Source of the DNA: Methanomassiliicoccales archaeon
GTDB taxonomy: Archaea > Thermoplasmatota > Thermoplasmata > SG8-5
NCBI GenBank assembly: GCA_030612505.1
Contig: JAUWNU010000001.1
Span: 1,233-65,232 of the forward strand
Direction: 5' to 3'
Length of the DNA stretch: 64,000 nt
This document shows positions 27,922 through 50,917 of the stretch, piece after piece; position 1 is the first letter of the stretch, and each line of letters begins with the position of its first letter. A program made the translations under genes and the position numbers. Below the pieces are notes generated by a model. The model was not told where the DNA came from. It saw nothing but the letters and a program-made list of their open reading frames with translations, and did no database searches.

Positions 27922-27965
27922 ATTTGATTAGAAATGTACGGTATGCGACGATCATTCACGCGTTA

Positions 27966-29378: not shown

Positions 29379-31697
29379 TTGAATAATACAAGAGGGGAAG
29401 CCATGAGGCAATCTACTTTGCAATTCAAGTGGGCAGTGATATTGACCAGTATTCTAATGATAAGCAGCACACTGGCTGCTGCCATGATAGTTGGTTCCAC
29501 CTCACCAGATGGAGGATTGGAAACCCTAAATGCTGGAGAACCGAACATCTTCTGGATTGGATTCAATGACACTGCAGGAACATCCAGGCTTGACCAGATG
29601 GTTGATGTTGAGAACTGGTATAATTTCACATGTGGATTCAATTACAGCTAGGGCTTTTTCAATTGCGAGATTATTGTAGAGGCCTGGTATGACTGTGGGC
29701 TGGCAGGAAACAGTTCTGCTTACCCACCAGAAACAGAGGACAACCGGAGTCTGGCCTTCAGCCTTCTATACGATGTTGCGACAGTCTCTTACACCATACA
29801 GTACCCGGGAGCAACACCAGGTACCATGGAGATAGCTATAAACGATTCCTGGGACACTGCTGTCATTGACTGGGTGCACCCAACCAACTCCCCAATGGAG
29901 GACATACTTGCACTGACAATACCAATTTACCTGGGACCGCAGATAAGAAATGCAGATGGCAATGGCTTTGGCTCTGGAGATTTAGATTATAATTCAGACC
30001 CAAATAATGCCTTACTGGACATAAACAGCTGGGACTTCGAGATCACTGTAAGGGACTCTGCAAATACTTCACTGGCTTCTTCCAGCTACGGAGAGTTCGG
30101 AATCAACCCGCATTGTGATATTTCTGTTACTGGAAATCCTGTTGGGGAAGCACCACCTGGCACTGCCGCTACTCTCCTGGCAAATCCAACTCATATCACC
30201 TATTCAGCTAACAATGATTATTGGGTCAATGTTTCTGTGACTAATCTTCTGGAAAATGGTGTAGGGCCAGCTTCTATTTCTGCAACCGATGTAGAAGTTC
30301 AAAATTCTGACCCATATGCAACTACTGGTAACTCAGATATATCCGCACAAACATATTTCCCTGGCCCAGGTATTGATATGCAAGTCTGGGGACAGCCAGG
30401 TATTCCAATGAATGCCCCAGGAAATGGAACAATAGCTACTGGCCCCTGGGTATCTGATTACAATGCAGCAATGTATGGGCTAAATGACTATACCCAGCTT
30501 GATTGGTGGATCACGGTTAGTGCAGCTACGCCAGAAGGGGTTTATTATGGAGATATCACAATTACAATAGAAGATTCTAATGGAAACACAGTAATGGACC
30601 AGACTACTCAGATAATTGTCAATGTTGTTTTCCCTCATTTATATTGGATTGGATTCAATGGAACAGGCATGAACTCAAAACTTGACCAGGTTGTAGATAC
30701 TGATAACTGGTACAATTTTACAGTGACTGGCAATTATTCACAGGGTTGGAACGGCCTCCAGGTGGAGATAAGGGCATGGTATGATAATGGTAATATTGGC
30801 TTTATGTCAACATATCCTCCTGTAACTCCTGAAAATAAAAACCTGGCATTCAGTATTACATATGAAGTTTTCAGTGGAATTTGCACTGTATATTATCCAA
30901 TAGGGCCGCAGGTTCAGGTAGGAACAGTCAGTGATGTGATCACATGGATAAATCCAATAAACATAGGAGAAGACTGGCATACTGTCAACATTCCAGTTTA
31001 CCTTGGAAATTCATTGATTTCCGCTGATGGTATGGGCTTCGCCAGTGGTGACCTTGCCTATCACTCTGACCCTAATTTGGCCTTGCAGGATGCTTTCAGC
31101 TGGGACTTTGAGGTCATTCTCAGGGATGCAATCAACCCAACAGCCTTGGACTTAAGCTATGCAGAATTCGGCCTTGACAACTCAACGCCCAGCTTTCCAA
31201 TATCTCTAGACGCTGGCTGGAATCTTATTTCGCTGCCGCTTGAACAGGCAGATGAATATTTGCCATCTGTTCTGAGTTCCATTGACGGCCAGTATGATAT
31301 TGTGAAATACTATGATGCCACTGACCAAAATGACCCATGGAAAACCTACAGAATAGGCGCATCAACCAATGATTTATTTTCAATTGATAGGACAATGGGT
31401 TTCTGGATTCATCTTACAGCAAATAATGGCGACCAGACATTGACGACAGGTATTGAAGGCACTTTCCCACCAGCCGCAGTAACTCTATACGCTGGCTGGA
31501 ATCTTGTTAGTTATCCTTCCATATCCCCGGATACTGTCGCAAATGCCTTATGGGGCACAGGAGCCGATATAGTCGAAGTATTTGACCCTGCAGAGCCTTA
31601 TTTGATAAGAGAGGTAAATGCGGATTATATGATGCAGCCTGGAGAAGGTTATTGGGTTCATGTTCCTGCGGACACAATATGGATGGTTGATTGGTAA
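29379..31697 (+). pseudogene. Secreted protein gene with two approx. 330-aa tandem repeats and a C-terminal GWNL domain, interrupted by a single in-frame TAG at 29649-29651. Either a pseudogene, a sequencing error, or split into ORFs 29379-29651 and 29826-31697.
   Basis: Both ORFs are in the same frame. The N-terminal signal peptide is in ORF1. The repeat motif NIFWIGFNDTAGTSRLDQMVDVENWYNFT (ORF1) matches LYWIGFNGTGMNSKLDQVVDTDNWYNFT (ORF2), and the alignment continues across the stop. Confidence 0.65.
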
Positions 31698-31774: not shown

Positions 31775-34700
31775 GTGATTATACATATTATGTCCAATAC
31801 AAAGTTAAAGGTGTTCATAATGGAGAGGAAAGATGTTTTTGTGCGCGGCCTTTCGATTGTTCTTGTAATATCAATGGTTTTTGGTTCAATACCATATTTC
31901 ACAATGGCCTCGGAGACCGTAGGCCAGATTGATATTGAAGTGACTAATCAAGAATTGGCAACCTATAATCTGGCTGTTTCCGAAATAGAGCTCAAGGAGA
32001 TTATTCCTGTTGAGGAAAATCAGGGTTCGCCGGCGCCAAGCCCATTTGCCACATTTGAGATTATGTATGCGGATTCGGCTATTGATCAGGGTGCTGGAGC
32101 AGTGCCCGAGGCAACTGGCACTCCTGATGATGTTCGCTTTTCATTCGGTGGAAATGCAAATTATGTAAGAGCTAGCGGCTCTACCTGGGGAGCTGGAGCA
32201 GGCTCAATCCTGTCAGTGGAAATCGCAGCAGAATGGTCATCTAGTGGTCTGACTGATGATGGTGCAATTATCCAGTATTATGATTCTGGAATTGGCGGCG
32301 TGGGAGCCACAAAGACAGCTGTGGATGCAAACAACTATGCTGTTGATAACACACTCTATCTGGACATAACCGCAGACAAGGCTAGCTGGACCTGGACTGA
32401 TGTGGGTAATGTCAACCCTGAGATATATTACCTCAAAGCCGGAGGCCCGGACGGCGGAACTCTAAGCATTGATGCACTCTGGATACGGGTACAATATGAA
32501 TCCATTTCAATTGACTATGATATCCCTGTGACCGTTGGCTGGAACCTTATAAGCGTTCCTTCGGTACAGGGAAACACCGACATTCTCACAGTACTGGATG
32601 ATGCTGGCGGCGATACTACCTGGGAGAGAGCTTCACATTACAATCCCCTGATAGCTGATAATCTATGGCAGTCCTATTCTATTTTCAAACCACCTACCCT
32701 GAATGAGCTGAACGATGTGAACAATAAGCTTGGCATCTGGGTGGACATAACAGATGTGGGAAGCGATGGCCTTCTCACAGTAAGCGGCAGCCCGCCTTCC
32801 ATGACTGCAATCAATCTCTATGCAGGCTGGAACCTTGTTGGGTATCCCTGCTTGGAAAGCCAGATGGCTATGAATTCACTGGCTGGCGTACCATACGATG
32901 CTCTGGAATGCCATGATGGTGGAGCACCATACCTACTCAGAACAATGCTGAACACAGAAATGATGGTTCCCGGTATTGGTTACTGGATAAAGGTAACCAG
33001 CGATTGTGTATGGAATGTGGGAGACATTACACCACCTACATTTGCAGGTCTTGTTTCTGCCCTGGATGCTGGAACCGGAGGAAGCGTTCTGCTGAACTGG
33101 AATCCGGCAACAGACCCCTCATACCCCATTACCTACAATATTTACATGGCCACAACATCTGGCGGCCAGGACTTTGGAACTCCGGATTATATTACAGACC
33201 TGACAGATTTCCAGGTTGATGGTTTGACAGACAATCAGGACTATTATTTCGTGGTAAGGGCAAAGGACTCTGCTGGCAATGAGGATTCAAACCTGGTTGA
33301 GAAAACAGCAATTCCAACAACACCAGATGCTACAAGCCCCTGGATAACAGCAACTGTTCCTGCAGATGCAGCAACAGGAATCGGCATTGCCCAGTCAATT
33401 ATAATTACCTTTTCAGAATCAATCAATACAGGTACATTCGTTTATTCCTGCGCACCCAACCCAGGCGGTTGGATAGAAACATGGGATACATTTGTGGAAA
33501 CAAATGATAGAGTAACCCTGACCCGCAATGACCTGGCTTTCGACACATTGTACACATTCCAGGTAACAGCAGCGGATGACCTGGCAGGCAATCCCCTGGT
33601 TGCCGGACCGGCACTGAACCCATGGACATTCACGACTATTGCAGCCCCAGACCTTACAGGACCAGTAACTTCTGGAGTATCAGCAACACCCAATCCCACC
33701 GATGGTGCTGGCACAGTCACATTAACAGCAACTGTTGATGATTCAACCACTGGCGGCTCTAATATTGCAGAGGCAGAGTACTTCGTGGATTCAGTAGGCG
33801 CTGACGGAAGTGGAACACTAATGGTAGCCAGTGATGGAAATTTCAACTCTGTGACAGAGGGCGTAACCGCTTCAATTGATGTTTCTGGATGGGCGCTGGG
33901 AACCTACACCTTGTATGTGCACGGACGGGATGCTTCAGGAAACTGGGGTGCTACAGACAGTACAATACTAGATGTCACCAATACACCTGATATCACAAGC
34001 CCCTGGATTGTAATAACAGCACCGGTGGACGGAGCAACTGGCGTATTAATTGGCCAGTCAATTGTAATTACTTTCTCGGAATCAATTAACACAGGCACAT
34101 TCGCCTACACCTGCACACCGAACCCAGGTGGCTGGGGCGAATCCTGGGACGCTGCAGTCGAGACCAATGACAGAGTAACATTAACCCACAGTGACTTTGC
34201 ATTTGACACATTATATGATTTCCAGGTAACAGCGGCAGACGACCTTGCTGGAAATCCCCTGGCAGCCGGACCAGTTCCGAACCCCTGGACATTCACAACC
34301 GAGCTGGAACCGACACCACCACAGGTTGTAGAGCCAACTTCACCTGCAAACGGAGCAATAGATGTGCCAGCCACATCAAACATCCAGATAACTTTCACAG
34401 AGGCCATGAACGAGGCATCTGTGGAATCCTGGTTCAATATTAATCCGGCAACAGCAGGAACATTCTCATGGAATCCAGGCAGTACAATTCTCACTTTCAC
34501 ACCCACAGGAGACCTTGCATTTGACCAGGTATACACCGTGACGATTGACGGTCTGGTGGAGGACCAGGAAGCCGAGACACTGGACGGCGATTATGACGGC
34601 GTTTCCGAGGGAAGCCCGACAGATGATTATGCCTTCTCGTTCACAACGGAAGCGGCACCCACGCCGCCCCAGGTGGTAGAACCGACGAATCCGGCAAACG

Positions 34701-37483
34701 GGGATGTAAACGTTCTAGTTACAGCAGCCATCCAGATACCGTTCACCGAGGCCATGAATGAGGCAAGCACCGAGGCGGCGTTCTCCATCGGCCCGGTTGT
34801 CGCAGGTGCATTCTCCTGGAATGTGGCAAGCGATATAATGACGTTCACGCCGTCCGCCGACCTATCGTATGAAACCACCTACACGGTCACCATTGATGGA
34901 ACCGCCCAGGACCAGCAGGCCGAGACACTGGACGGTGATTATGATGGTGTTTCCGAGGGCTCGCCGACGGACGATTATTCATTCTCATTCACCACGGAGG
35001 CAGCGGTCACACTCCCACAGGTCACGTCCACCATTCCGGTAAACGGTGCCGCGGGCGTTCTGGTGACCGACCCGATAATAATAAACTTCAACATGGCAAT
35101 GTGCGAGGATGGAAACGGCAAGGCACCCTGGGACGCGGGTTGTGTAGAAGGGGCGTTCACGGTAACCTATGGCGCGACCACATTGACCGCAGGAGACTTC
35201 ACGATATCCTGGAACGCAGCAAATGACCAGATCACCTTCATTCCCGTTACTTCCTACCCCTACGGAACAGTGATGAGCGTGACAGTTGACGGCACGGCCT
35301 TGGAAACCACGGAAACGTACACCCTGGACGGGAATTACAATTCAGTATCCGAAGGCTCCCCGATAGATGACTATTCGTGGAGCTTCACCACAGAGCCAGC
35401 ACCCACACCGCCGCAGGTTGTGGAACCGACATCCCCGCCGAATGGAGCGGTTGATGTCTTGATCACATTGGTCATACAGGTAACCTTCACGGAGGCCATG
35501 AACGAGGCAAGCACCGAGGCAGCGTTCTCCATCGGCCCGGTTATCGCAGGCACGTTCTCCTGGAACCCCAGCAGCACTATTCTGACGTTCACGCCATCGG
35601 CCGACCTCGCGTACGATACTGTATATTCGATAATCATCGCTGGAACCGCGCAGGACCAGGAGGCCGAAACACTGGACGGCGATTATGACGGCGTTTCCGA
35701 GGGAAGCCCGACAGATGACTATTCATTCTCGTTCACCACCCAGGCAGCACCCACGCCACCCCAGGTAATCTCCACATCACCCACCGACGGAGCCATTGGC
35801 ATCTCTTTATCCACGACAATCCAGATTACCTTCTCCGAGGCCATGAACGAGGCAAGCACCGAGGCAGCGTTCTCCATCGGCCCGGTTGTGGCCGGTGTGT
35901 TCTCCTGGAACCCAGGCAGCACAATTCTCACGTTCACACCATCCGCCGATCTATCGTATGGAACCACCTACACGGTCACCATCGATGGCACTGCCCAGGA
36001 CCAGCAGGGCGAGACACTGGACGGCGATTATGACGGTGTTTCCGAGGGCGCGCCGACGGACGATTACACATTCGGTTTCACCACCGAGCTTCCGCCGCCC
36101 CCGCAGGTCACCAGCCACTCGCCAACCGATGGGCAGAGCAATGTCCCGCTGAGCGAACCGATCGTGATCAACTTCAACATGGCAATGAGCGAGGATGGCA
36201 ATGGCAAGGCACCCTGGGACGCGGGTTGTGTAGAAGGAGCCTTTAGCATGACCGGCGGACTGACCGCAGGTGACTTCACGATATCCTGGAACGCTGGTGT
36301 CGATCAACTTACTTTGACACCGGAAACCCCATACCCGAGCGGCACGGTCCTGACGGTCACCATAGATGGTACGGCGGAGGAATCCACAGGCACCCAGACA
36401 TTGGACGGTGACTATGACGGCACAAGCGAGGGCAGCCCCACTGACGATTACTCCTGGAGTTTCACCACGGATTCCGGCCCATCAACACCGCCACAGGTCG
36501 TCGAGCCGACCGCACCGTTCAACGGCGAAACCAATGTTGTAGCGAGCACCAACATCGTGATTACATTCACCGAGGCCATGAACGAAGCGTCAGTAGAATC
36601 CTATTTCTCCATCTCGCCAGCAGCAGCAGGGGCATTCTCATGGAACCCCGGAAGCACTATTCTCACCTTCAACCCGAATCCGGACCTGTCCACGACCACC
36701 ACATACACCGTGACCATTGACGGACTGGCAGAGGACCAGGAAGCGGAGACACTGGACGGCGATTATGATGGAACCAGCGAAGGCAGTCCGACAGATGATT
36801 ATTCATTCTCGTTCACAACCGAGGCTGGCTCGGTCAACAGATATGCGGTTTGTGTGGGGATAGACAAGCACGATGACGGCACAACCACTTGTATATACGC
36901 TGACAACGATGGCCAGGATTGGGGGAATGAACTTAATTCCCAGGGGTATTCCGTAAGCTCGCGCCTGAATACCGCTGCTGATAAGGCGGTCATACTGGGA
37001 GATATTGCAGACATGGACACTTCTGAAAATGCTGGTGACTATTGTGCCTTCACATTCGCTGGCCATGGTGGTGTCTCTGGTGGAACCCATTACATCATTT
37101 GTGCGGACTGGGATGGAACATGGGGAACGGTGATCAGCGACAGCGAGTTTGAAGCGGCCTTCTCTGGTTTCAGCAGCATGCATATATTCATATTCTTTGA
37201 CAGCTGCAACAGCGGTGGAATGAGCGAAGTTGCCGCGGCTGGCAGACTCCTGATTACGGCCTGTACGGCCGTCCAGAGCTCCTATGGCGGGGATGCCGCC
37301 ATGCAAAATGGTGTCTGGACCTGGTACTTCGTCGAGGACGGTATCCAGACACAGGGATACACCATAATGGAGGACTGTTTCAACTACGCCGCACCCGAGG
37401 CAAAGAGTTGGTTAACCACCAATTACGGAGTCACCATGGACCCCCAGATATTTGACCAGTACACAGGGGATTTCTATCTTTGA
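31775..37483 (+). CDS. Giant secreted protein (1902 aa): signal/TM, GWNL domain, FN3 domain, about 9 tandem Big_5 (SbsA-type Ig-like) repeats, and a C-terminal caspase-like (clan CD) peptidase domain
   Basis: FN3 at SVLLNWNPATDPSYPITYNIYMA. The Big_5 consensus PTPPQVVEPTSPANGAxDV...IQITFTEAMNEAS...FSWNPGSTILTFTP...YTVTIDG...ETLDGDYDGVSEGSPTDDY repeats about 9 times. The C-terminal region has FAGHGG (His) and FFDSCNSGG (Cys), in caspase-fold dyad order. Confidence 0.85.
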   Translation: MIIHIMSNTKLKVFIMERKDVFVRGLSIVLVISMVFGSIPYFTMASETVGQIDIEVTNQELATYNLAVSEIELKEIIPVEENQGSPAPSPFATFEIMYADSAIDQGAGAVPEATGTPDDVRFSFGGNANYVRASGSTWGAGAGSILSVEIAAEWSSSGLTDDGAIIQYYDSGIGGVGATKTAVDANNYAVDNTLYLDITADKASWTWTDVGNVNPEIYYLKAGGPDGGTLSIDALWIRVQYESISIDYDIPVTVGWNLISVPSVQGNTDILTVLDDAGGDTTWERASHYNPLIADNLWQSYSIFKPPTLNELNDVNNKLGIWVDITDVGSDGLLTVSGSPPSMTAINLYAGWNLVGYPCLESQMAMNSLAGVPYDALECHDGGAPYLLRTMLNTEMMVPGIGYWIKVTSDCVWNVGDITPPTFAGLVSALDAGTGGSVLLNWNPATDPSYPITYNIYMATTSGGQDFGTPDYITDLTDFQVDGLTDNQDYYFVVRAKDSAGNEDSNLVEKTAIPTTPDATSPWITATVPADAATGIGIAQSIIITFSESINTGTFVYSCAPNPGGWIETWDTFVETNDRVTLTRNDLAFDTLYTFQVTAADDLAGNPLVAGPALNPWTFTTIAAPDLTGPVTSGVSATPNPTDGAGTVTLTATVDDSTTGGSNIAEAEYFVDSVGADGSGTLMVASDGNFNSVTEGVTASIDVSGWALGTYTLYVHGRDASGNWGATDSTILDVTNTPDITSPWIVITAPVDGATGVLIGQSIVITFSESINTGTFAYTCTPNPGGWGESWDAAVETNDRVTLTHSDFAFDTLYDFQVTAADDLAGNPLAAGPVPNPWTFTTELEPTPPQVVEPTSPANGAIDVPATSNIQITFTEAMNEASVESWFNINPATAGTFSWNPGSTILTFTPTGDLAFDQVYTVTIDGLVEDQEAETLDGDYDGVSEGSPTDDYAFSFTTEAAPTPPQVVEPTNPANGDVNVLVTAAIQIPFTEAMNEASTEAAFSIGPVVAGAFSWNVASDIMTFTPSADLSYETTYTVTIDGTAQDQQAETLDGDYDGVSEGSPTDDYSFSFTTEAAVTLPQVTSTIPVNGAAGVLVTDPIIINFNMAMCEDGNGKAPWDAGCVEGAFTVTYGATTLTAGDFTISWNAANDQITFIPVTSYPYGTVMSVTVDGTALETTETYTLDGNYNSVSEGSPIDDYSWSFTTEPAPTPPQVVEPTSPPNGAVDVLITLVIQVTFTEAMNEASTEAAFSIGPVIAGTFSWNPSSTILTFTPSADLAYDTVYSIIIAGTAQDQEAETLDGDYDGVSEGSPTDDYSFSFTTQAAPTPPQVISTSPTDGAIGISLSTTIQITFSEAMNEASTEAAFSIGPVVAGVFSWNPGSTILTFTPSADLSYGTTYTVTIDGTAQDQQGETLDGDYDGVSEGAPTDDYTFGFTTELPPPPQVTSHSPTDGQSNVPLSEPIVINFNMAMSEDGNGKAPWDAGCVEGAFSMTGGLTAGDFTISWNAGVDQLTLTPETPYPSGTVLTVTIDGTAEESTGTQTLDGDYDGTSEGSPTDDYSWSFTTDSGPSTPPQVVEPTAPFNGETNVVASTNIVITFTEAMNEASVESYFSISPAAAGAFSWNPGSTILTFNPNPDLSTTTTYTVTIDGLAEDQEAETLDGDYDGTSEGSPTDDYSFSFTTEAGSVNRYAVCVGIDKHDDGTTTCIYADNDGQDWGNELNSQGYSVSSRLNTAADKAVILGDIADMDTSENAGDYCAFTFAGHGGVSGGTHYIICADWDGTWGTVISDSEFEAAFSGFSSMHIFIFFDSCNSGGMSEVAAAGRLLITACTAVQSSYGGDAAMQNGVWTWYFVEDGIQTQGYTIMEDCFNYAAPEAKSWLTTNYGVTMDPQIFDQYTGDFYL

Positions 37484-38824
37484 TCATGAACTAGGCTTGC
37501 GTCTGACAGCGATGAGGATACAAGATATAATGACAATTCCAATGAGGGCTGCCCATAACACCCGGTTGTCAGATCGATTTACACCTTCCGGTCCAATGGT
37601 CCTGTAGACGAGCCAGGTATTATCTGTTGGTTCGGGAAATTGCTCGGCAGTGTTGGTCTCCCAGATAATCATCAAATCGGTATCTAGAGGAAGTAACGCT
37701 GGGCCGCCGAGTAACAATCCCCCTCCATCTCGCCTGTCACCATCCCCGGTTGTGAGTTCGATGGTGCCGCTCCATTCACCATCAACTAATATGCGTATCA
37801 CAATATCAGAATCAGCACCCGTGGTGATGGCCGGGTCATGGGATTGCCAGCAGATATAAAGGGCATCGTCGAACACAGTCATTGTGGGTTTGAAATCGTC
37901 GCCAGAATCGTCCGTCGTGAGTTCGACCAGTGAAGAATTCCAGTGGGAGCCGTCGTAGGCCGCCACGACTATGTCCCAGTCATCACCCGAACTAATAATC
38001 GGATCATTCGTTCTCCATGCCACGCGAAGTTTATCGTCGTGGGTGCATATGGCGGTGTCCGAGTTGTCCTCTGTGCTGGTTGATGTGATATCAGAGATAT
38101 TCTGGCTCCACGAAAAACCATCGAAGGACCGCACGAGAATGTCGCTTCCCTCGTCATTCCCAAAGTTAGTCGTGTAACTCTGCCAGGCCGCATAGGCATT
38201 TCCCTGGAACGTTGTGATGGAAGGGGACCAGTTGTTGCCATTGGTGCCCTCTGACACTACAATCAGTTGCCCCCATTCTCTATTCTCATCCAAACACCTG
38301 GAAACAATGTCATATTGTGAGCCAGTCCACCTCTGCCAGACCACCAGAAGCTTCGAGCCTAGGCTTACGGCCACCGGCATTCTGTCGTTCTGGTCATCGT
38401 TCTCTGGACTCACGAGAATAAGGGTATCGTTATGGCTATTGACCTGTTTCATCACTATCTCGTCGTCTATTCCCGGGTCAACCAATTCAGAATCGCTCTG
38501 CCAGAGTACATAAATCTCACCACAATGTCTTACAAGTTTTGGCATCCCACTGTACCCATCGTCCCAAATAACCAATGGCGGTGACCATTGGCTAGAATAT
38601 TCAGAATACATTATGCATTCTGTGCTGTGACAGTAAGCCGGATCATTGGTGCTCCAAACAAGGTGTCCAGTATTTCCATCATTCAATGCAAAGGGGTCCC
38701 TGTCCATGCCGAGGGCACCGGGCAGGGTGAACTCTGTGACGCCAGTACCACCCACAAAACCAGAACCAATAAACAGCGGACCGGAAATGACCAAAACAAT
38801 GAACAGAAGGACTCGGTACTTCAT
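37484..38824 (-). CDS. Surface-anchored 7-bladed beta-propeller protein (distant BNR/sialidase-fold relative) with a signal peptide and C-terminal TM anchor
   Basis: Seven repeats of W-x-(S/T)-x-D-x5-9-D-x-D-I-V-x10-15-W. C-terminal VLWAALIGIVIISCILIAVRRKPSS. Confidence 0.65.
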   Translation of the reverse strand: MKYRVLLFIVLVISGPLFIGSGFVGGTGVTEFTLPGALGMDRDPFALNDGNTGHLVWSTNDPAYCHSTECIMYSEYSSQWSPPLVIWDDGYSGMPKLVRHCGEIYVLWQSDSELVDPGIDDEIVMKQVNSHNDTLILVSPENDDQNDRMPVAVSLGSKLLVVWQRWTGSQYDIVSRCLDENREWGQLIVVSEGTNGNNWSPSITTFQGNAYAAWQSYTTNFGNDEGSDILVRSFDGFSWSQNISDITSTSTEDNSDTAICTHDDKLRVAWRTNDPIISSGDDWDIVVAAYDGSHWNSSLVELTTDDSGDDFKPTMTVFDDALYICWQSHDPAITTGADSDIVIRILVDGEWSGTIELTTGDGDRRDGGGLLLGGPALLPLDTDLMIIWETNTAEQFPEPTDNTWLVYRTIGPEGVNRSDNRVLWAALIGIVIISCILIAVRRKPSS

Positions 38825-40990: not shown

Positions 40991-43900
40991 TCAGGGTGGA
41001 ACAGTGAACTCCCATGTATAGTCTAATACATTACCATAAATGTCCTCTGCAACTATTTGACAGACCACAGTAGTTCCAGGAGCAAAACCTGCTTCGTGAT
41101 AGTATGAAACATTGTAACCGTCTGTGATGGGATCTAAATCGTAGAAAACAGAGAATGCGCTGACGTAAAGCCGGATAGTGCTTACTTCCACTCCAAACAT
41201 GTCTGTTATATGAATTGAAATTACAGGTGTTGTATTGGTCGATGCTCCATCTGGTGGAGGATATTCATTTGAATGCTGAGGTGGAATTGTATCGCTTATC
41301 ACAGTCCAAGTGCAGTTGTCTGTGACTTTCACCCAATAACCTTCACCGGCAGTCATTGTGACTGTGGTCAGATCGTAAACATCTCTTATGAGCATTGGTG
41401 CTGTGGAATCATAAACAGCTATACTTCCTACAGGTAATCCAGATAATGCGTCAGAAGCTAGTCTGTCATTGTATGAAGGATAGCCCACAAGGTTATAACC
41501 ATAGTACAAAGGTATCTCAGTAATTATAGGTTTACTTCCCATTACTGCCAATGTAGTATTAGCCGTTGCATGTATCCAAATACCCATTGTATGGTTAATG
41601 TATAGCAGGTTATTTTGATATTCTGGCTTATAGATGTTATAAGATTTCCAATAATCTAATCTTGTATCAAACCACCTTGCACGATCCCACTCGCCTTCTA
41701 TAGTGTAGAATGCAGACCGGATGTATGGATCGAATTGTATATTAGGCAGGGAAATCAGGTTCCAGCCTTCGTGCAATGGTAATAGGAAAGGTTCACTTAA
41801 TATGATTATTACTTCCTTGCTTTGGTTCATATATGCGTTTGGTGTGGCATAACCTATAAGGTTCTCATACGTTGCAGTTGCATAGTGGGGTGTGCTGAGT
41901 GTTCTAGTAATTGAATTCTCCACATATTCTGTACAGATAACCCAGTTAGTTCTTCCATTAATATTCGTGGTTCGTAATTCAACTAAATTGTGAGATGTAT
42001 CATTCACCCAAACGGTTGCATTAGAAGTGGGCTCAAGAGACTCATAGAGAACTTTTACATGGAGGAACCATTGGACTGTAAGATTTGATGAAGCATCCCA
42101 GTATATTGTATTGGTCTTATTGAAGGTTGTATTTAGAGAAACTGGGTGGGAGTCACCACCAATGCTGAAGTCATAACCGGTACTATTTGTAATAGTGGAA
42201 TTTACTATCAGGAAAGAGGAATCATAACAATAGATTGCATCGTTTACAGTGTCTGAAATAATGTTGTTTCTGAGTTCGGTTCTCAGAACGTATTTTATAT
42301 TAATATTCTCCAATACGATTTTTCCCTGCTCGTCAACACTGACATTCAGAGGTATAGTGACATCCCCTAAACCTGTACCTGATACTCTACTGTTCAACAA
42401 GCTTACTAATCCATTGTCTGTTTCATTGATGAAAACGATTTCATTAAATTCACCACTATACACCCAATCCTCAACACCATCATCTCCAATGTCAAGCTTA
42501 ACATTGCTTGAGAAAATGTCATCTCCAAATATTCTCATGTCAACAAAATGAATGTGTGTTGTTTGTTCTTCTTCACACATTTCTTGCCAGGCTACTATGT
42601 TTCCATGAATTGATTGACTAGGATTTGGGCTAATACCTGCTGTCAAAGAAAGAATGGTTGTATTACCATCAGATATGTCATATATGGCAACTCCAAATGG
42701 TCCAGGAACTGCATTGATTATCTGGTAAACTACTTTATCGCCCCAGATTTCCGGTTGCACATTATTATGAGCATTCGTAATCTTAACAGTCTCATTGTTG
42801 GAAAGATTGAACACATAGATATTCCACCAGTTATCCGATGTGACACCATCTTTGTCGCTTTGCCAAGCTATAAAATTATTATGGATACTTGGGGATGTGT
42901 TGATGGTTCCACTGCCAAGTGGGGTAATCCATTTTTCACTGTCATCTCCTCCACCATCTTCAAACACACCATTTAGTCCAAGGTCATATAAGTATATTGC
43001 ATATTCCCAACCTAGATATTTGTGCCATACAATCTTATTCCCAAAGATACAAGGAGCATCATCAATTTCAAGATTATTTGTTATTCTAGTCTCTTCGTTT
43101 GATGTCAGATTATACATATAAATTTCATAATTTCCGTCGCGAGAATCACGCCACACAACTTTATCGTTATGTATACTAGTAGAATAACCTCTGGAAACCT
43201 TGTTGGATAGTTCGGTTACAATATCTGCCGAGATATTATAAGAATATAGGTGATTTTCATATATCCAAACATATTGATCATCCCAAAGAGCACCTTGTAT
43301 TGCCATAATGTTACTTCCCACATCCACTAGATACTCCTCTTCCATAGTTGAAATATTGTAAGTAAAGAGGCTATAAACTCCTTCCCGTTTATCTAACCAG
43401 TATACTCGGTCTTCCCAAACATGTGCATAATGTTGACCCATTCCCGCTGGATTAGAAACTACTTCTACACTAGTTCCTAATGATTCTCCTGAAATCACGA
43501 AAGTTGACTCATCCAAAATAATGGCCCTGTTTGGAACAGTGAGTGTTGGTAGGGGATTAAGATACGACTCTGGATTGAAAAAGCCGAAATCTCTTTTTCT
43601 ACTCCCATCAGAAAGGCAATTTATTGAAAGTTCTGGAGAATAACTAGAATTTTCAAAATATACACCATAACCATTGATTGAAATGATATTATTTGCTATA
43701 TAAGGACCTGATGAACGGGAATATATTCCGTATGCTATGTTCTGGGAGATATTGTTGTTCATAATCGATGGATGTGAGCTATCACAAAATATACCATAGT
43801 TGTTCAATCTTATATTGTTCCCTGTTATATTCATTGGTTCTTCGTTTGAGTTTATGTAGATACCATAACTAAACAAAGATATTGTATTGTTCTCTATGGT

Positions 43901-46900
43901 AGTTTTTGCTGTTCCGTATATGCCTATTCCTCTTTGGGTTCCGGTTCCAGTGATGTTGTTCTCTTGAATTACAGGATAACATGTATAGGTGGTTGAGGTG
44001 GATCCATAAGCATACACTACATGCCCTGTTCCAGATTGTATGAAAGTATTGTTCTTAATGTTCGCTAAGCTATCGTAGCAGTAAATGAGGTTGGATGAGC
44101 TTCCAGAGATATTATTATGGGAAATAGTTGTTGGTCGTTTACCTCCATACATATAGATACCATAGGTGTTGCTTGAGAATATATTGTTGTAACTTATTGA
44201 CGGCCAAGAAGCAAAGAGATAGATGCCATAGGTGTTGCTTGAGGAAATATTGTTTCTTATTACCTCAGTACTAGAAGACCATACCATATAGCAACCATAT
44301 CTGTTTAGGAGTATATTGTTGTCTTCAACGATGGCATGACTACCTTGATCTCTTATACCAGCACCGGATGTATAACCGTATCCATTTGAAGTTATGTTAT
44401 TACCAGCGATTGTTGCACCAGAAGATTGTATATATATCCCACAATTATCATTTGAAGTTATGTTGTTTCCGCTAATTAATGACGTGTCGGATGAAGTACT
44501 CTTAATGCCAACCAGATTTAACTGAATTGTATTGTCGGTTATTGTGCTCTGAGACCACCATCCAGTAAGTATCCCGATGCCATCGTTGGAATTTATATGG
44601 TTCCGTGTTATAATCGCCATTGAACGTATCACAAATATTCCTTGATAATTCAGGGAGATTGTATTGTTATCGACTGTTGAAAGTCCACCTCCCTCTAAAT
44701 ATATTCCACGCACATTGTTTAAAGATATGTTATTGCCATCTCTTAAGACAGGGGACGCCGAGTTGCTATATACTCCATAATTAGTGTTTGAAATAATTGT
44801 ATTACCGATTATACTTGGGCTGGCTAAGATAGCCACAGATATACCGATAGTGTTCCAACCTATGTCATTGTTCTCTATAGTAGGGGCACTGTTATTTACA
44901 TAAATACCTCGTGGGTTTGAGCTTATATTGTTATTGTTGGCGATAATCAATGATGTGGCTGCCTCATTTATTTGTATTCCGTCATTCCAGTTATAATTGA
45001 TATTGTTTGCTTCAATATTTGAGGAACTATCTTTTCCAACCACGATGCCATGATAATTGTCTGTAAGGTTGTTTTTTGTAATATGGGGCGAAGAGTCACC
45101 AATAACAACTATCCCTGACCCTACATCGAAATCAAACATTACAACGAATTTGAAATATTCACCGGAATTATCATCGATAGCAATATTATCAGCAACATCT
45201 TTTGACTGAACCGCAAAATAGTATGTTACACCATGAAGCAAATTCGTAAGAAATACAATGTGGGCTGTGGTCTTTCTCGGGTTCGAAGCTGTTGTTAAGG
45301 GAGGTACATTGTCACCCCAAATTACCGTGCTGTCACTACTTTCGTCAGTGTCCCAGGTGATTGCCACAGTGCCATATGATAATCTTGTGACTGCAATATT
45401 GGAAATAATGGGCATCGTATCGTCGATAATAGCTGTGTCAATAGCTGTTGCCGGACTGCCTGTTCCATCATCTGCATCTTCATATTCAACAGTTATTGTG
45501 TCACCTGATTTTACCTGTAATATATTGTCTGGAGGATTTGAATCTCCATACTCCAATGTCGCACTGCCAGTAAAGTAACTGGAGCCTGAGACCGTCTCTG
45601 TCAAAGTGGACTGTAATAAATCTCCGGTTGGACTGCTCGCGAGGTTAATCATTATGTTTGGTATTGCTGTCAAGTCCGCATCGACCAAGTTTATTCCTGC
45701 TGTTGAGTTTGACTGATATGCCGTTTTATCAAATTCAACAATGCCTTTGCTTGTAGGTGTCCCGTGATAGTTCAGAACAATGGCATAATCCTGGTCAATC
45801 GCAGATGTGGCAGAAATACTATCCTCTAACAAACTTACGGCAATTACTCTTACTATGTAAGTTCCCACCAAAAGCTCCGAAGGATTGATGTACACACATT
45901 CTATATTGTTTATATCATCGTTTTGAATCAGAGATGAATCTGACCAACCGTTTGAAAATTGATTGCCATAATATACCGTACCATCAGGTGCAATCACATC
46001 AAGATCCAGGTTGTTTACCAAGGTCTTAGCTGCATTCGGCGAGCCTGGAGGATCTGTCCAGGCCATTGTGATCTTGAGCGGCTGGGTTGTATCTGTTACT
46101 GTGACCTTATACTCTTGCCATTGTCCGTTTTCCAATAACTGATGGTCATCATGTGTTATTGTGCCTACTGGCTCAAGGGCATTTGTCAGATTCATTCTAC
46201 CCCATCCCTCATTTCCGTTTGGTATATCTGGAGTGCCAATATCATCTGCACTGTTTATCAATACTGCCTTTATCATAGCCGGGCTCGGATCTACTCCGTA
46301 GAGATTTCTGTAGTATTCAATAAACAACGCGGCTCCGCCTGCGACATGTGGACATGCCTGGCTAGTACCTGAACACCACTGATAATCATCATCTATGTTT
46401 TGGTATCCTGCTGCAACCAGGCTTGGGCTTCCATCATGAGTTTGTAAAGAAGCAATCCATGTTCCAGGTGCGACAATGTCTGGTTTAATTCTTCCATCAT
46501 CAGTAAGCCCTCTGCTACTGAAGTAGGCAATTTCATCTGGGTTATCTGCTGCACTGCTCCCCTCTAGTCTGTAATTTTCTGATGCACCCACAGTGATTAC
46601 GTTTTTTGCATTCCCAGGGCTTCCTGTAGAACCTGCACCAGCACTACCTTCATTTCCTGCAGCAAATATCATAGTGTATTCTTGATCTCCAGCAGTATCA
46701 TTGTCAGCGTCTCTAACAAGGGCATCGAATTCAGCATCGTCTAGAGTGTACGCCCCATAACTCCTACTTCCCCAACTGTTACTACCTAGCACTGCTCCAC
46801 GAATAAAAGCATCTTTCACTAATTCTTGATTTGATGGGCCTTCCCAGGAATCTGAATCGCCAAATATCCTCTGAGCCAATATTTTGGCATTTGGTGCAAC

Positions 46901-49900
46901 ACCTAATCCATACAGATAGCTGTTGGTGTCTGTTGTTCCAATTGAAGCGTTACCAGCTACAATCCCTGTACAATGTGTTCCATGTCCATTGATATCTTCA
47001 GCAACACCATCTGTATCATCATCTTCTGTATAGTCAATATATCCTAATACTCTGCCTCGCAGATCTTCATGCATTGTTCCATTTACACCTGTATCGAGAC
47101 CTGTATCAACAATAGAGATATTCACGCCAGTTCCATTGTATCCTAGGCTATTTACATAAGAGCCATAACCTGGGAAAGAGCCGCCAACTATTTCATCAGA
47201 AACTTCGTCAAATATCTCAGGAACCATATAAGGCTCAATCCAATATACCTCCGGAATATGTGCAACTTTTGATACAATATCAGAGTTAATCTGGATTCTC
47301 ATATTGTAATAATCTCTAAATTGCCATTCCTTTAGAACCACGTTGCTCAAAGAAGTGACTTCTGCGACTATATCAGATACAGCATCAGTATTCATTATCA
47401 TAACAGTGACATTTGTAGAATTTTGGAGGTTTCTATTGATTTTTGAGCTGATTTTGTAAGCTGGTTGATATAGGCCGCACCACTGAATGAAAGGCAGATT
47501 TTCCACGCTGGTTTTCGTTGTCTCGTCCATCATTACACCAAATGCATTACTTGGTACAGAGTCATAGACTGTCGCACCTAACCCCTCAATCTGCTCTATC
47601 ATTTCATTTGTAAGAGGTTCGGAGAACTGGACAAGATACAACCCATCAACCCCCGGCGGATAAGCTTCGATTTTAAGATCACTTGAAATTAACGGTTCAC
47701 CTTCAATTGTATCAAATGAGATGGAATCCAGTGATATTTGAGTTTGAGATTGCGGTCTTCTATTGAGTAATTGAAGAAGTGCTGGTGAAGAAAAGATGCT
47801 ACCGCCTGAACCGGGCAATCCTTTTCCACTGTATGTTGTAGCAGAAACAAAGTTATCCGAGATGTATGGCGATCCACCAGAGACAACAATTCCTGCTTGC
47901 CCATTGAAAGTTATTGTGTTTCCAATAATCGGTACGTTAGACAGAATCGAGCTTACTCCAAACCCGGTATTAAATGAGATGTTATTATTGGCAATTTTCG
48001 TGTATTCTGAGAGTAAAAATGGAACTGAAACAGGATTTGCTTTTGAGGATCCTACGAAGATTGTGAATGTTTGGTACGCATCGTTCAGCCACAGATCGAA
48101 AGTCACCGTGCCACCAGTTATGTTAAAGTCCAATGAATCCTCACCGCTTCCTTCATTCATGTTAAAAGATGTCGGATTGCCTATTCCTGCAGTATCGCCT
48201 TCTCCTGTCTCAAAGTCGAAGTAGTTCAAATTCGTAAAGCTCTCGCTTGCAGTTATTGTTCCGTTGAAGTAATCTGTACCTCCGTCGCCACTCATTCTCA
48301 AATGCCAACCAGCATTGTCATGCCAGATGAAATAGCCCACATCTGTTCCGGGAATGTATGTCGGCTCACCATAGGGACTGATCATATTATGGACGCTGGT
48401 GCCATTTCCCTGATTATATTGAATTGTATTGTTTACAATCCTTCCGATGGACGAATCCAGGTATATTCCTTCACCAACATTGTCTTCTATCAGACAATTT
48501 TCGATTATGGGGCTGCTCATGCCCTCGACAAAGATACCGTGCCCGAGGTCTGCCTTGGTCACATTGCTGTTCATGATTGTTGGAGAGGAATCTTTGACGT
48601 AGATGTTGTGTGTGGTTCCTTCCATGATTTTACTGCCAGCGATATTTACTTTACTTCCTTCAAGTGCCTGGATGCCTCCTGGTTTGCTGAGGTCTGAAAT
48701 ATCGCCCCACATCCACCGAACAGAACTGTTATCCGTGACGTTGAGCCACGAATTAGTGAAAAACTTGTATGAAAGAGATTCTTGTTTTGCAACGATAATA
48801 GACCGATCTAAGATATCAAAACTTCCACCATGATTGAGTTTTATCTTGAGCGGTGATTCTAATGGGTCAATCCTGTCTATTCTCAATGTGACATTATCTT
48901 CGAATATCAGTCGTCCGGTAGAATTGATTATCAAATCTCCGCCAAGACCGTATCTGTCCTGCAATCTTATCTCCACATTATTGTATCTCTCTTCTGTGTC
49001 CACGTAATGCGTCGAGTTCCACCAGATAGTTCCACCAATCACCCACACACCTTCCCTGATGACATTATCGCCTTCATTTGCCTCGCCGATTTTGTTCTCG
49101 GGGTCTATGTGAATGTTCAGATAATGGGGGCCTCTGGTCTCGGGAGTCCATTCAAATGTAACAAAATCTTCGGAACCGCTCTCTATCTTGCTGATGGTGG
49201 ATGAGGATAAAAGCGTCTTATCTCCGTTCTCTAATTCATCGTATATATCTACTTGAACATCCTTGGCAGATACTATTCCAGCATTGCTCACGGGAATTTT
49301 TATCCAGCTTGGTTCGCCCTTGATCAAATCGCCTTCTATCTCAATGTATTGTGGTATCGCTGTAAGGTCTGGTGGAAATATCAATCTGGTTTCATCTATC
49401 TTCACAATCGCCCACGTGCCAAATATCTCCGGCAATCTTCCCTTTATCACATAATCTCCTATCTCATCTTTTGTTTCGAGAAGAAGTTCTTCACCAGCTT
49501 CTAAGAAAGCTTGTATATCTTTGTCTTCTGCCAGATTCTTCATTGCAGTTTGATATTTGTTGAGAGCAAGTGAAAATTTATTGTCGATAATTCCCCACCA
49601 ATTATCTCTGCCGAGTTGAATTGTACCTGTAACTCTTATCTCGGCAATGCTTTTCTCCGCATTTGCGATATCTTCAGACATAGGATTATCGACCATTACA
49701 TCTGTAGTTTCAATCAAGTTGTTAATCATAGACCAGACTTCCAGTATCAACATATCTGCGTCTGCCTCGTTGATTGTTCCCTGCTTCTCAAGCAAGGATA
49801 TCTTGTCTACTACCAAAAAGGCAGAATCAACCGCGTGATTTAATGTATTAACTGCCTGTGCTGTCTTCCCATTGTCATAGAAATTATCAGCGAGATTCAA

Positions 49901-50917
49901 TTTACGTTCGATAACATCGAGCAAAGAATTGATTCCTCTTGAGTGTGGTTCTCCCACCTTTTCATCAACAAGGTCTCTGAGATTGATAACTTGCTCTTTT
50001 ACTGATTCTATCATAAATGGAACCGTGACAACAACAATCTCACTGTGCGCGATGTTATTGGTCTCATCTGCTTCATAGAATGTCTCATCTGGGTCAACCA
50101 CTGCAAAAATCATGTATTCTCCTTCAAAGCCAGTAGTATTCCAATTCAGAGAGGCGGTCATCGGCTGAGAAAGTCCGTGAAATGAGGACATACGAGTTCC
50201 GATTTTATTGTCTTCGTCTACAAAATTCAAATAGAAAGAAACATTGACATCCGGGGCACCCTGGGCGGCCGTTATCACAGCAGTAACAGTAATAATTTCA
50301 CCTGCTTCGGGTCTGATATTTGAAAAGCTGACACCCCTCACTGATAAATCCTGTTCAATTCCCAATTCATCAAATTCTTCTTCCGGTGGCGGGGCATCTT
50401 CTGCAAATTCATCAATAGGCATGGAAAATTCTGATAAAGTATCTGGAGAACCCTCGGTAGACAAAAGACTATCAGCTGACGCTATTTTAGAATCCTGGCT
50501 GTTGAAATATAAATCTAATTTCTTCCCGAATCCTATGTGTTCAATAACAAACGTTTCATAAATCGTGCTGCCGTCACTGACCGCAGTAATCTGGATAGTA
50601 TCTCCAACTTCATAACCGCTTGGCAATTCTTCCAATATACATTCATACGCACAAGTTTCGTATACCTCTGCCTTAATGGATTCACCTGTTCTCAGATTTT
50701 CAATAGTAATGTCCACATTGCTTATCAAATTGCCATTCCCATCATAGACAAAACCATAAACATCAAAAGGTGGTATTGGAGCACCATTGTTTCCAGTCAT
50801 TCCTTGTGCCTGAGCTGTTGAGAACGCACTGAATATGAACAACATTACAACCAAACTCGCAAAAATCTTTGTCTTACTACCCACTTCCACACCGTTTCTC
50901 TTCACTTCTGTATTCAT
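40991..50917 (-). CDS. Giant secreted multidomain protein (3308 aa): signal peptide, CarboxypepD_reg-like and CARDB N-terminal module, PbH1 beta-helix repeats, S8 subtilase domain (about 46250-47200), a second long PbH1 repeat block, a PD40-like beta-propeller repeat block, and a C-terminal GWNL domain (about 41270-41800)
   Basis: Subtilase triad motifs VNISIVDTGLD (Asp, about 47100), HGTHCTGIVAGN (His, about 46960) and WCSGTSQACPHVAGGAALF (Ser, about 46350). Dozens of NNISxNxxGIY beta-helix repeats. Propeller repeats such as DKVVWRDSRDGNYEIYMYNL. Confidence 0.85.
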   Translation of the reverse strand: MNTEVKRNGVEVGSKTKIFASLVVMLFIFSAFSTAQAQGMTGNNGAPIPPFDVYGFVYDGNGNLISNVDITIENLRTGESIKAEVYETCAYECILEELPSGYEVGDTIQITAVSDGSTIYETFVIEHIGFGKKLDLYFNSQDSKIASADSLLSTEGSPDTLSEFSMPIDEFAEDAPPPEEEFDELGIEQDLSVRGVSFSNIRPEAGEIITVTAVITAAQGAPDVNVSFYLNFVDEDNKIGTRMSSFHGLSQPMTASLNWNTTGFEGEYMIFAVVDPDETFYEADETNNIAHSEIVVVTVPFMIESVKEQVINLRDLVDEKVGEPHSRGINSLLDVIERKLNLADNFYDNGKTAQAVNTLNHAVDSAFLVVDKISLLEKQGTINEADADMLILEVWSMINNLIETTDVMVDNPMSEDIANAEKSIAEIRVTGTIQLGRDNWWGIIDNKFSLALNKYQTAMKNLAEDKDIQAFLEAGEELLLETKDEIGDYVIKGRLPEIFGTWAIVKIDETRLIFPPDLTAIPQYIEIEGDLIKGEPSWIKIPVSNAGIVSAKDVQVDIYDELENGDKTLLSSSTISKIESGSEDFVTFEWTPETRGPHYLNIHIDPENKIGEANEGDNVIREGVWVIGGTIWWNSTHYVDTEERYNNVEIRLQDRYGLGGDLIINSTGRLIFEDNVTLRIDRIDPLESPLKIKLNHGGSFDILDRSIIVAKQESLSYKFFTNSWLNVTDNSSVRWMWGDISDLSKPGGIQALEGSKVNIAGSKIMEGTTHNIYVKDSSPTIMNSNVTKADLGHGIFVEGMSSPIIENCLIEDNVGEGIYLDSSIGRIVNNTIQYNQGNGTSVHNMISPYGEPTYIPGTDVGYFIWHDNAGWHLRMSGDGGTDYFNGTITASESFTNLNYFDFETGEGDTAGIGNPTSFNMNEGSGEDSLDFNITGGTVTFDLWLNDAYQTFTIFVGSSKANPVSVPFLLSEYTKIANNNISFNTGFGVSSILSNVPIIGNTITFNGQAGIVVSGGSPYISDNFVSATTYSGKGLPGSGGSIFSSPALLQLLNRRPQSQTQISLDSISFDTIEGEPLISSDLKIEAYPPGVDGLYLVQFSEPLTNEMIEQIEGLGATVYDSVPSNAFGVMMDETTKTSVENLPFIQWCGLYQPAYKISSKINRNLQNSTNVTVMIMNTDAVSDIVAEVTSLSNVVLKEWQFRDYYNMRIQINSDIVSKVAHIPEVYWIEPYMVPEIFDEVSDEIVGGSFPGYGSYVNSLGYNGTGVNISIVDTGLDTGVNGTMHEDLRGRVLGYIDYTEDDDTDGVAEDINGHGTHCTGIVAGNASIGTTDTNSYLYGLGVAPNAKILAQRIFGDSDSWEGPSNQELVKDAFIRGAVLGSNSWGSRSYGAYTLDDAEFDALVRDADNDTAGDQEYTMIFAAGNEGSAGAGSTGSPGNAKNVITVGASENYRLEGSSAADNPDEIAYFSSRGLTDDGRIKPDIVAPGTWIASLQTHDGSPSLVAAGYQNIDDDYQWCSGTSQACPHVAGGAALFIEYYRNLYGVDPSPAMIKAVLINSADDIGTPDIPNGNEGWGRMNLTNALEPVGTITHDDHQLLENGQWQEYKVTVTDTTQPLKITMAWTDPPGSPNAAKTLVNNLDLDVIAPDGTVYYGNQFSNGWSDSSLIQNDDINNIECVYINPSELLVGTYIVRVIAVSLLEDSISATSAIDQDYAIVLNYHGTPTSKGIVEFDKTAYQSNSTAGINLVDADLTAIPNIMINLASSPTGDLLQSTLTETVSGSSYFTGSATLEYGDSNPPDNILQVKSGDTITVEYEDADDGTGSPATAIDTAIIDDTMPIISNIAVTRLSYGTVAITWDTDESSDSTVIWGDNVPPLTTASNPRKTTAHIVFLTNLLHGVTYYFAVQSKDVADNIAIDDNSGEYFKFVVMFDFDVGSGIVVIGDSSPHITKNNLTDNYHGIVVGKDSSSNIEANNINYNWNDGIQINEAATSLIIANNNNISSNPRGIYVNNSAPTIENNDIGWNTIGISVAILASPSIIGNTIISNTNYGVYSNSASPVLRDGNNISLNNVRGIYLEGGGLSTVDNNTISLNYQGIFVIRSMAIITRNHINSNDGIGILTGWWSQSTITDNTIQLNLVGIKSTSSDTSLISGNNITSNDNCGIYIQSSGATIAGNNITSNGYGYTSGAGIRDQGSHAIVEDNNILLNRYGCYMVWSSSTEVIRNNISSSNTYGIYLFASWPSISYNNIFSSNTYGIYMYGGKRPTTISHNNISGSSSNLIYCYDSLANIKNNTFIQSGTGHVVYAYGSTSTTYTCYPVIQENNITGTGTQRGIGIYGTAKTTIENNTISLFSYGIYINSNEEPMNITGNNIRLNNYGIFCDSSHPSIMNNNISQNIAYGIYSRSSGPYIANNIISINGYGVYFENSSYSPELSINCLSDGSRKRDFGFFNPESYLNPLPTLTVPNRAIILDESTFVISGESLGTSVEVVSNPAGMGQHYAHVWEDRVYWLDKREGVYSLFTYNISTMEEEYLVDVGSNIMAIQGALWDDQYVWIYENHLYSYNISADIVTELSNKVSRGYSTSIHNDKVVWRDSRDGNYEIYMYNLTSNEETRITNNLEIDDAPCIFGNKIVWHKYLGWEYAIYLYDLGLNGVFEDGGGDDSEKWITPLGSGTINTSPSIHNNFIAWQSDKDGVTSDNWWNIYVFNLSNNETVKITNAHNNVQPEIWGDKVVYQIINAVPGPFGVAIYDISDGNTTILSLTAGISPNPSQSIHGNIVAWQEMCEEEQTTHIHFVDMRIFGDDIFSSNVKLDIGDDGVEDWVYSGEFNEIVFINETDNGLVSLLNSRVSGTGLGDVTIPLNVSVDEQGKIVLENINIKYVLRTELRNNIISDTVNDAIYCYDSSFLIVNSTITNSTGYDFSIGGDSHPVSLNTTFNKTNTIYWDASSNLTVQWFLHVKVLYESLEPTSNATVWVNDTSHNLVELRTTNINGRTNWVICTEYVENSITRTLSTPHYATATYENLIGYATPNAYMNQSKEVIIILSEPFLLPLHEGWNLISLPNIQFDPYIRSAFYTIEGEWDRARWFDTRLDYWKSYNIYKPEYQNNLLYINHTMGIWIHATANTTLAVMGSKPIITEIPLYYGYNLVGYPSYNDRLASDALSGLPVGSIAVYDSTAPMLIRDVYDLTTVTMTAGEGYWVKVTDNCTWTVISDTIPPQHSNEYPPPDGASTNTTPVISIHITDMFGVEVSTIRLYVSAFSVFYDLDPITDGYNVSYYHEAGFAPGTTVVCQIVAEDIYGNVLDYTWEFTVPP

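Follow-up and report, generated by a model that had tools for sequence, protein, structure and literature searches.

We examined a 64,000-nucleotide stretch of the genome of a Methanomassiliicoccales archaeon of the SG8-5 lineage (GenBank assembly GCA_030612505.1, contig JAUWNU010000001.1, positions 1,233 to 65,232 of the forward strand; hereafter the window), in which three proteins, here called p1, p2 and p3, carry a common domain that we call GWNL. We find that GWNL is an autonomous extracellular module marking the C-terminal end of secreted proteins that have no membrane anchor. The domain, ~165 amino acids (aa) long, consists of two tandem copies of a beta-rich unit of ~80 aa and we regard it as a new family that has no name. 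The family is very large; most of it falls in Thermoplasmata, and Chloroflexota and a few further bacteria and archaea make up a smaller branch. No cultures exist of sediment Thermoplasmata (MBG-D/Thermoprofundales, SG8-5 and relatives), which are believed to live by breaking down proteins outside the cell (PMC6461988). GWNL provides a handle for predicting the surface-associated proteome of these organisms, a defined target for structural studies and for assays of binding, and a candidate new Pfam family of at least 18,700 sequence clusters.

Three proteins of the window share a duplicated domain

A sequence-only reading of the window, made by a model that ran no database searches, had proposed that three of its proteins share a domain with duplicated halves. 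The domain is present in all three at the places proposed. The segments of p1, p2 and p3 are ~167-171 aa long, and pairwise BLASTP aligned them end to end over ~168 aa at 34-39% identity, with E values of 2e-31, 3e-33 and 2e-39; the homology is real and well above chance. The three-way alignment has 42 invariant columns, and the landmarks named in that reading (GWNLISxP, W..Y, GxW(I/V), YAGWNLVGYP and GEGYWV) are invariant or nearly so both there and in an alignment of 105 family sequences. Each protein contains exactly two occurrences of G[WY]NL, ~90 residues apart, and a six-frame scan of the window with a hidden Markov model (HMM) of the domain found full copies in p1, p2 and p3 only (Table 1). 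The description of the carriers as giant proteins does not extend to p1, which is 623 aa as called and 764 codons in its extended reading.

The copy of p1 is the canonical C-terminal form, and the protein ends in ...ADTIWMVDW before the stop codon. In p2 the copy is internal, near the N-terminus, and ends in ..VWNVGD; after it come fn3, nine Big_5 stretches and, at the C-terminus, a caspase-like Peptidase_C14 domain. In p3 the copy is the penultimate domain and ends in ..TWTVISD. Upstream of it lie CARDB, a Peptidase_S8 subtilase, Beta_helix/NosD and beta-propeller repeats (Pfam and NCBIfam assignments, as for p2), and downstream are ~100 aa resembling an Ig-like module that in two relatives, P0016 and P0032, precedes GWNL. 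Both p2 and p3 have lost the tryptophan with which the canonical form ends.

To compare the two halves, the 105-sequence family alignment was cut at the inter-repeat linker. Profile-profile alignment of half 1 with half 2 (hhalign) gave a probability of 98% and an E value of 2e-13 over 71-76 columns, confirming the duplication. In each unit the conserved motifs follow in the order I-x-L-x-x-G-W-N-L-[IV]-x-x-P, a short helix, D-x-V-x-x-[YF]-D, G-x-G-[FY]-W-[IV]-x-V and W-x-V, and half 1 has an additional W-x-x-Y between the D-x-V-x-x-[YF]-D and G-x-G-[FY]-W-[IV]-x-V elements. Bacterial relatives retain the half-1 pattern in both halves; in the archaeal form, half 2 has diverged.

An AlphaFold2 model of the p1 domain, built from the family alignment, was obtained with high confidence (predicted local distance difference test, pLDDT, 92.3; predicted template modelling score, pTM, 0.88). 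In each half of the model, six beta-strands form three hairpins accompanied by one 4-residue helix; DSSP assigned 13 strands and two 4-residue helices to the whole. The sole soft region is the linker between the halves, at residues ~81-97. A half-unit modelled by itself reached a confidence equal to that of the full domain (pLDDT 92.2). In some members (P0122, P0225 and P0232) a further domain is inserted between the halves, indicating that the linker tolerates insertions.

GWNL matches no known family or fold

Pfam and NCBIfam scans of p1, p2 and p3 returned no match over the GWNL domain, and p1 was without any match at E<=0.1. When the 105 relatives were compared with Pfam, the only recurrent signal was a sub-threshold one to DUF1737 (PF08410) over the GWNL(V/I)G.P strand, seen in 20 members. 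This similarity spans 17-21 residues and scores 14-16 bits against a cut-off of 24; being short, below the cut-off and limited to the level of a motif, it led us to reject membership in DUF1737. Sequence profile searches of the PDB with full-domain and half-unit profiles gave nothing credible.

Foldseek searches of the PDB and BFVD gave nothing below E 0.05, and the template modelling (TM) scores did not exceed 0.5. The full model had a best E of 0.054 in the PDB (TM ~0.15) and of 0.2 in BFVD. For the half-unit, the best E in the PDB was 0.41, and the best TM scores, 0.4-0.5, were to small cupin-like and RCK_C domains. A weak match that recurred, to the luminal domain of vitamin-K gamma-carboxylase (E ~0.4, root-mean-square deviation 8.5 Å), was judged to be noise. 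The outcome of profile searches and structure prediction is a confident model with no detectable solved relative, and the statement of the sequence-only reading that the domain could not be assigned to a named family stands, with no Pfam, NCBIfam or PDB match covering it.

Full-text literature searches for the motif or for a Thermoplasmata C-terminal domain yielded no description of GWNL, and every source-supplied name that we saw for its members was 'hypothetical protein'. As set out below, GWNL departs in sequence and in fold from each of the known systems against which it could be tested, and it is for this reason that we treat it as a new family.

Size and distribution of the family

When 1.84 billion cluster representatives, each a protein standing for a 50%-identity cluster, were searched with the profile, 18,700 matched at E<=1e-3; the stricter limits of E<=1e-10 and E<=1e-30 were passed by 7,495 and 2,426, respectively. 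In GTDB contigs, with one genome per species, 243 places matched; 79 loci from 31 assemblies were kept. Nearly all of these loci are labelled Thermoplasmata, Methanomassiliicoccales, Methanobacteriota or Ca. Proteinoplasmatales SG8-5, and a few are labelled Anaerolineae, Thermoanaerobaculia or uncultured bacterium. A search seeded with an Anaerolineae copy led to the bacterial branch (Chloroflexota, Desulfobacteraceae and Thermodesulfobacteriota) as well as to Woesearchaeota. An uncultured Thermoplasmata metagenome-assembled genome (MAG) holds the nearest relative of the window GWNL, at 61% identity. The window itself is archaeal and encodes an archaeal-type AdoMet synthetase, a CDP-archaeol synthase and a RIO kinase.

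GWNL is a C-terminal domain of secreted proteins

We called open reading frames (ORFs) in the 79 related loci and placed the domain with the HMM, which gave 101 carriers. Among the 97 with a complete 3' end, GWNL ends <=5 residues from the C-terminus in 85 (88%), and it is C-terminal in 227 of 248 database proteins (92%). The final residue of these C-terminal members is tryptophan in 55/85 and 171/227, respectively. The usual ending is W-[VT]-[VI]-[DN]-W-COOH, with W-[ED]-V-P-L as a minor type, and the terminal tryptophan is missing in the internal copies listed, those of p2 and p3 included. The variable position ascribed to the domain in the sequence-only reading is therefore correct for the window and not for the family, in which GWNL is essentially the C-terminal domain of secreted proteins, with p1 canonical and p2 and p3 minority forms.

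An N-terminal hydrophobic signal was found in 72 of the 82 carriers with a complete 5' end; p2, p3 and the extended reading of p1 have one as well. The passengers of the window proteins and of the relatives, the latter sampled by two Pfam scans, are mutually unrelated. They comprise papain C1, clostripain C11, subtilase S8 and caspase-like C14 peptidases and Porphyromonas-type PAD, together with BNR and Sortilin propellers, beta-helix/NosD, CARDB and BACON, and this diversity supports the earlier view of an autonomous module on unrelated architectures. In two bacterial RHS-repeat proteins (one scanned with Pfam, the other a close homologue over its N-terminal 260 residues), GWNL is at the N-terminus. 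Carrier genes often lie in tandem, up to four consecutively, and one MAG has at least 11 in the loci fetched.

Two proteins are strong exceptions to the C-terminal rule. P0123 (3424 aa) contains five internal GWNL domains, and P0124 (862 aa) has two tandem copies directly after its N-terminus.

GWNL and membrane anchors are nearly mutually exclusive

To compare anchors, we took from the related loci those proteins of >=300 aa that are predicted to be secreted and are not polytopic. A C-terminal transmembrane helix was present in 2 of 72 GWNL carriers versus 13 of 51 non-carriers (Fisher p=3.5e-4); GWNL and C-terminal membrane anchors are thus almost mutually exclusive. In the window, no C-terminal transmembrane-like segment was found in p1, p2 or p3, and all four large secreted proteins without such a helix (these three and the product of 2402..8383) bear GWNL or a GWNL-like domain. 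Six window proteins end in a transmembrane helix with a charged tail (Table 1). Three of them, the paralogues starting at 51063, 55406 and 60099, each consist of a BNR propeller, Ig-like domains and two Big_5 stretches, and they end in WGWIGIIIFL..., which includes the helix and tail; these are the membrane-anchored counterpart to the GWNL-bearing proteins. In L008, L010 and L067, GWNL is the last folded domain, and a linker of ~60 aa separates it from a C-terminal transmembrane anchor, so that GWNL is membrane-proximal there.

The tryptophan content of GWNL is 5.2%, versus 2.7% for the remaining protein; glycan-binding modules are often rich in this residue. Net charge per 100 residues is -5.8 for GWNL versus -7.6 for the passengers. 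Since GWNL matches the remaining protein in acidity, we rejected the idea that it binds anionic polymers electrostatically in the style of surface-layer homology (SLH) or GW modules. The median identity of the domain between paralogues of one genome is 52.8%, versus 39.6% between genomes.

A possible role in surface tethering

In function, GWNL would appear to most resemble C-terminal retention or sorting modules (the C-terminal domain of the type IX secretion system, T9SS; GW/SH3b; SLH), dockerins and terminal carbohydrate-binding modules (CBMs). We tentatively favour, at somewhat less than even odds, the idea that it is a self-contained extracellular module that tethers secreted proteins non-covalently to the surface of the cell that produces them. 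Carriers would be exported via Sec by their N-terminal signal peptide, and GWNL, normally the last domain with a free C-terminal tryptophan, would then bind a general constituent of the surface of the producing cell; a glycan or protein of the envelope or S-layer is the most plausible candidate. Peptidase, beta-helix, BNR and Ig-repeat carriers that have no membrane anchor would thereby be kept on the cell. In p2, a stalk of fn3 and Big_5 (Ig-like) domains would present the caspase-like peptidase outward, with GWNL at its N-terminal end, next to the cell.

Carbohydrate binding and envelope targeting, the functions suggested in the sequence-only reading, are still the leading candidates, and the C-terminal bias and the exclusion of anchors favour some tethering role. 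We also count the tryptophan richness, the terminal position, export, the unrelated passengers and the membrane-proximal copies of L008, L010 and L067 in its favour, and the many paralogues per genome, with their higher identity within than between genomes, fit co-evolution with one genome-specific partner. The mechanism would be that of the GW modules or SH3b repeats of Listeria InlB and Ami, tandem units of ~80 aa with a Gly-Trp dipeptide that tether secreted proteins non-covalently to the producer's surface. The resemblance in the dipeptide is superficial. There is no Pfam match, the half-unit has no SH3-like structure among its 50 best listed Foldseek matches, and GWNL is acidic whereas GW modules are basic. 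PGF-CTERM/archaeosortase-type and simple C-terminal transmembrane anchors are alternative means of keeping archaeal secreted proteins on the cell. GWNL differs from these in being a folded, soluble domain with no transmembrane signal, and p1, p2 and p3 have no hydrophobic helix with a basic tail. A surface-tethering or targeting function would put GWNL among modules of a familiar kind, with a structural scaffold unlike theirs.

It is conceivable, although rather unlikely, that GWNL is the signature of an unrecognised surface attachment or sorting system widespread in Thermoplasmata, in which the free C-terminal tryptophan is part of the recognition element and an envelope receptor co-evolves with the domain in each genome. 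Such a system would be a functional counterpart to SLH and GW modules or to the C-terminal domain of the T9SS, and would use a fold that has no relative among solved structures. If GWNL does anchor or sort proteins, this would be a new mechanism in archaeal cell-surface biology.

Several points weigh against tethering. Both the binding by GWNL and the cell's own surface as its ligand are inferred. Clustering of the neighbour genes in the 31 genomes gave no conserved candidate for a receptor, sortase, partner or processing enzyme. The relatives in Chloroflexota and other bacteria, which have different envelopes, argue against a ligand specific to one type of envelope, and where there are up to five internal copies or tandem N-terminal ones (P0123 and P0124), a generic binding module fits better than a dedicated anchor. 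The acidity of the domain, equal to that of the rest of the protein, sets it apart from an electrostatic binder of anionic polymers like SLH or GW. The similarity within genomes could simply stem from recent lineage-specific duplication. Finally, the exclusion of anchors is equally expected for released enzymes with a substrate-binding module.

Other explanations for GWNL

This last alternative, a CBM- or lectin-like module that binds an insoluble external polymer (detrital glycan, wall debris or the surface of another cell), is the main rival to tethering, although it seems doubtful. Peptidases and other hydrolases would be released and then concentrated on their substrate, so a missing membrane anchor is what one would expect. 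Many passengers are of the hydrolase kinds (C1, C11, S8 and C14 peptidases, and BNR) attributed to sediment Thermoplasmata (PMC6461988). The abundance of tryptophan in GWNL also speaks for this explanation. It accounts better than tethering for the spread across phyla and for the internal arrangements of multiple copies, and binding to a target is plausible for the bacterial RHS proteins with N-terminal GWNL. However, CBMs commonly occur at either end of a protein, and the extreme C-terminal bias and conserved terminal tryptophan of GWNL are unusual for them. In many carriers, p1 among them, no catalytic domain can be recognised. We found no sequence match to the carbohydrate-binding families of Pfam, and neither sequence nor fold places GWNL in a described CBM family. 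Furthermore, the higher identity within genomes fits one shared partner better than diverse substrates. If GWNL is a substrate-binding module, it defines a new CBM-like family.

We consider it unlikely that GWNL is a C-terminal signal for sorting or secretion, comparable to the T9SS domain of Bacteroidota (Por_Secre_tail, TIGR04183 / PF18962), that would be recognised by dedicated machinery and, once the protein is exported, might be cut off or attached covalently. The T9SS domain, too, folds into a beta-rich structure, lies at the very C-terminus of Sec-exported proteins that are otherwise unrelated, and occurs in many paralogues per genome. The GWNL family shares the extreme C-terminal position, the Sec export and the unrelated passengers, with two of the three window copies internal. 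The exact C-terminal position in ~90% of members, the conserved terminal aromatic residue, the diverse passengers with many paralogues per genome and the greater similarity within than between genomes are what a sorting signal would lead one to expect. Nevertheless, ~10% of copies are internal, as are two of the three in the window, some proteins have 2-5 copies, and internal copies cannot serve as a terminal signal. Carriers already bear Sec signal peptides, and their archaeal hosts have no outer membrane to cross. Among the neighbours no conserved machinery gene was found, and the consensus of the 105-sequence alignment has no conserved cleavage motif upstream of the domain. The T9SS domain is a single Ig-like sandwich of ~80-100 aa, whereas GWNL is twice that size and has two repeated units; GWNL has no match to TIGR04183 or PF18962, and for neither model is a T9SS domain among the 50 best Foldseek matches listed.

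A dockerin-like role, in which carriers would be plugged into a scaffold protein or multimerised, is slightly less likely still: like the type I dockerins of cellulosomal enzymes, GWNL is internally duplicated, with a pseudo-symmetric architecture, and C-terminal on many different extracellular enzymes, and its higher similarity within genomes recalls cohesin-dockerin pairs, which are species-specific, but no cohesin-like partner or scaffold candidate was found near the genes, GWNL has neither a Ca-binding loop-helix motif nor a Pfam dockerin match, and a type I dockerin is helical and ~70 aa long with two Ca-binding loop-helix segments of ~22 residues, whereas GWNL is all-beta with one short helix per unit and more than twice that size.

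The p1 gene and other features of the window

Table 1. Coordinates of the GWNL domains and of associated features, numbered from the first nucleotide of the window
Feature	Position	Strand	Remarks
GWNL domain of p1	31182..31694	+	aa 453-623 of ORF 29826..31697; HMM score 237 bits
p1 GWNL half-units	half-unit 1 ~31182-31457; half-unit 2 ~31458-31694	+
GWNL domain of p2	32516..33025	+	aa 248-417 of ORF 31775..37483 (1902 aa)
GWNL domain of p3	41291..41791	-	aa 3043-3209 of ORF 40991..50917 (3308 aa)
Probable divergent, split GWNL-like domain	7541..8365	+	C-terminus of 1993-aa FG-GAP protein, ORF 2402..8383
p1 gene, full reading	29403..31697	+	764 codons; signal peptide MRQSTLQFKWAVILTSILMISSTLAAAMIVG, two ~190-aa modules, then GWNL
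p1 passenger modules, ~190 aa, two copies	29526-30107 and 30618-31178	+	Smith-Waterman score 446 vs 40+-6 for shuffles
Proteins ending in a transmembrane helix and charged tail (n=6)	38..1579; 8392..10221; 37484..38824; starts 51063, 55406, 60099
BNR/Big_5 paralogues, ~1180 aa (n=3)	51063-54605; 55406-58957; 60099-63623	+
Five consecutive genes upstream of p1	24803-28916	-	HAD phosphatase, SIS isomerase, GHMP kinase, nucleotidyltransferase, NAD-dependent epimerase
KaiC/RecA-like ATPase gene	40030-40770	+	just past 3' end of p3, convergent
184-aa ORF	54675-55229	-	72% identical (126/175) to N-terminal 186 residues of p3

The frame of p1, called from 29826, runs upstream to an ATG at 29403 and is interrupted by a single in-frame TAG at 29649-29651, inside the first of the two ~190-aa modules. 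This TAG aligns with a glutamine of the second module copy, and the homology between the copies is present on both sides of the stop. The cause may be a recent nonsense mutation, a sequencing error or read-through. TAG terminates 4 of the 30 ORFs of the window and thus behaves as an ordinary stop, which makes recoding of the codon as pyrrolysine unlikely; we favour one of the first two causes. The modules follow the pattern FWIGFN..NWYNF..AWYD..LAF..ADGxGFxSGDLxYxSDPNxAL..SWDFE. They have no match in Pfam, and homologues occur in other Thermoplasmata GWNL proteins (L046, L033, L028 and L041).

The FG-GAP protein encoded by 2402..8383 is probably a divergent fourth member of the family, on a weak match. 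Its half-units lie at aa 1714-1800 and 1918-1988, and the half-2 HMM, run against all six-frame pieces of the window, gave a whole-protein E of 1.9e-5. The half-units are separated by an insert of ~115 aa, which is fn3-like by eye only, and the protein ends in ...CTWTYVEYA. This split layout resembles that of P0122, P0225 and P0232, the variants with an insertion between the halves.

The commonest neighbour of GWNL genes is a ~1000-aa STAND-type ATPase whose C-terminus carries TPR-like repeats; 9 of the 31 genomes have it, in 13 genes altogether (e.g. L056 15267-18254), and it is absent from the window. The five genes directly upstream of p1 together look like a heptose-type nucleotide-sugar pathway, and similar nucleotidyltransferase and epimerase genes recur near GWNL genes in 4-5 other genomes; a similar KaiC-like gene recurs near them in 3 others. 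The ORF at 54675-55229 is a stand-alone duplicate of the N-terminus of p3, with its signal peptide and CarboxypepD_reg-like domain.

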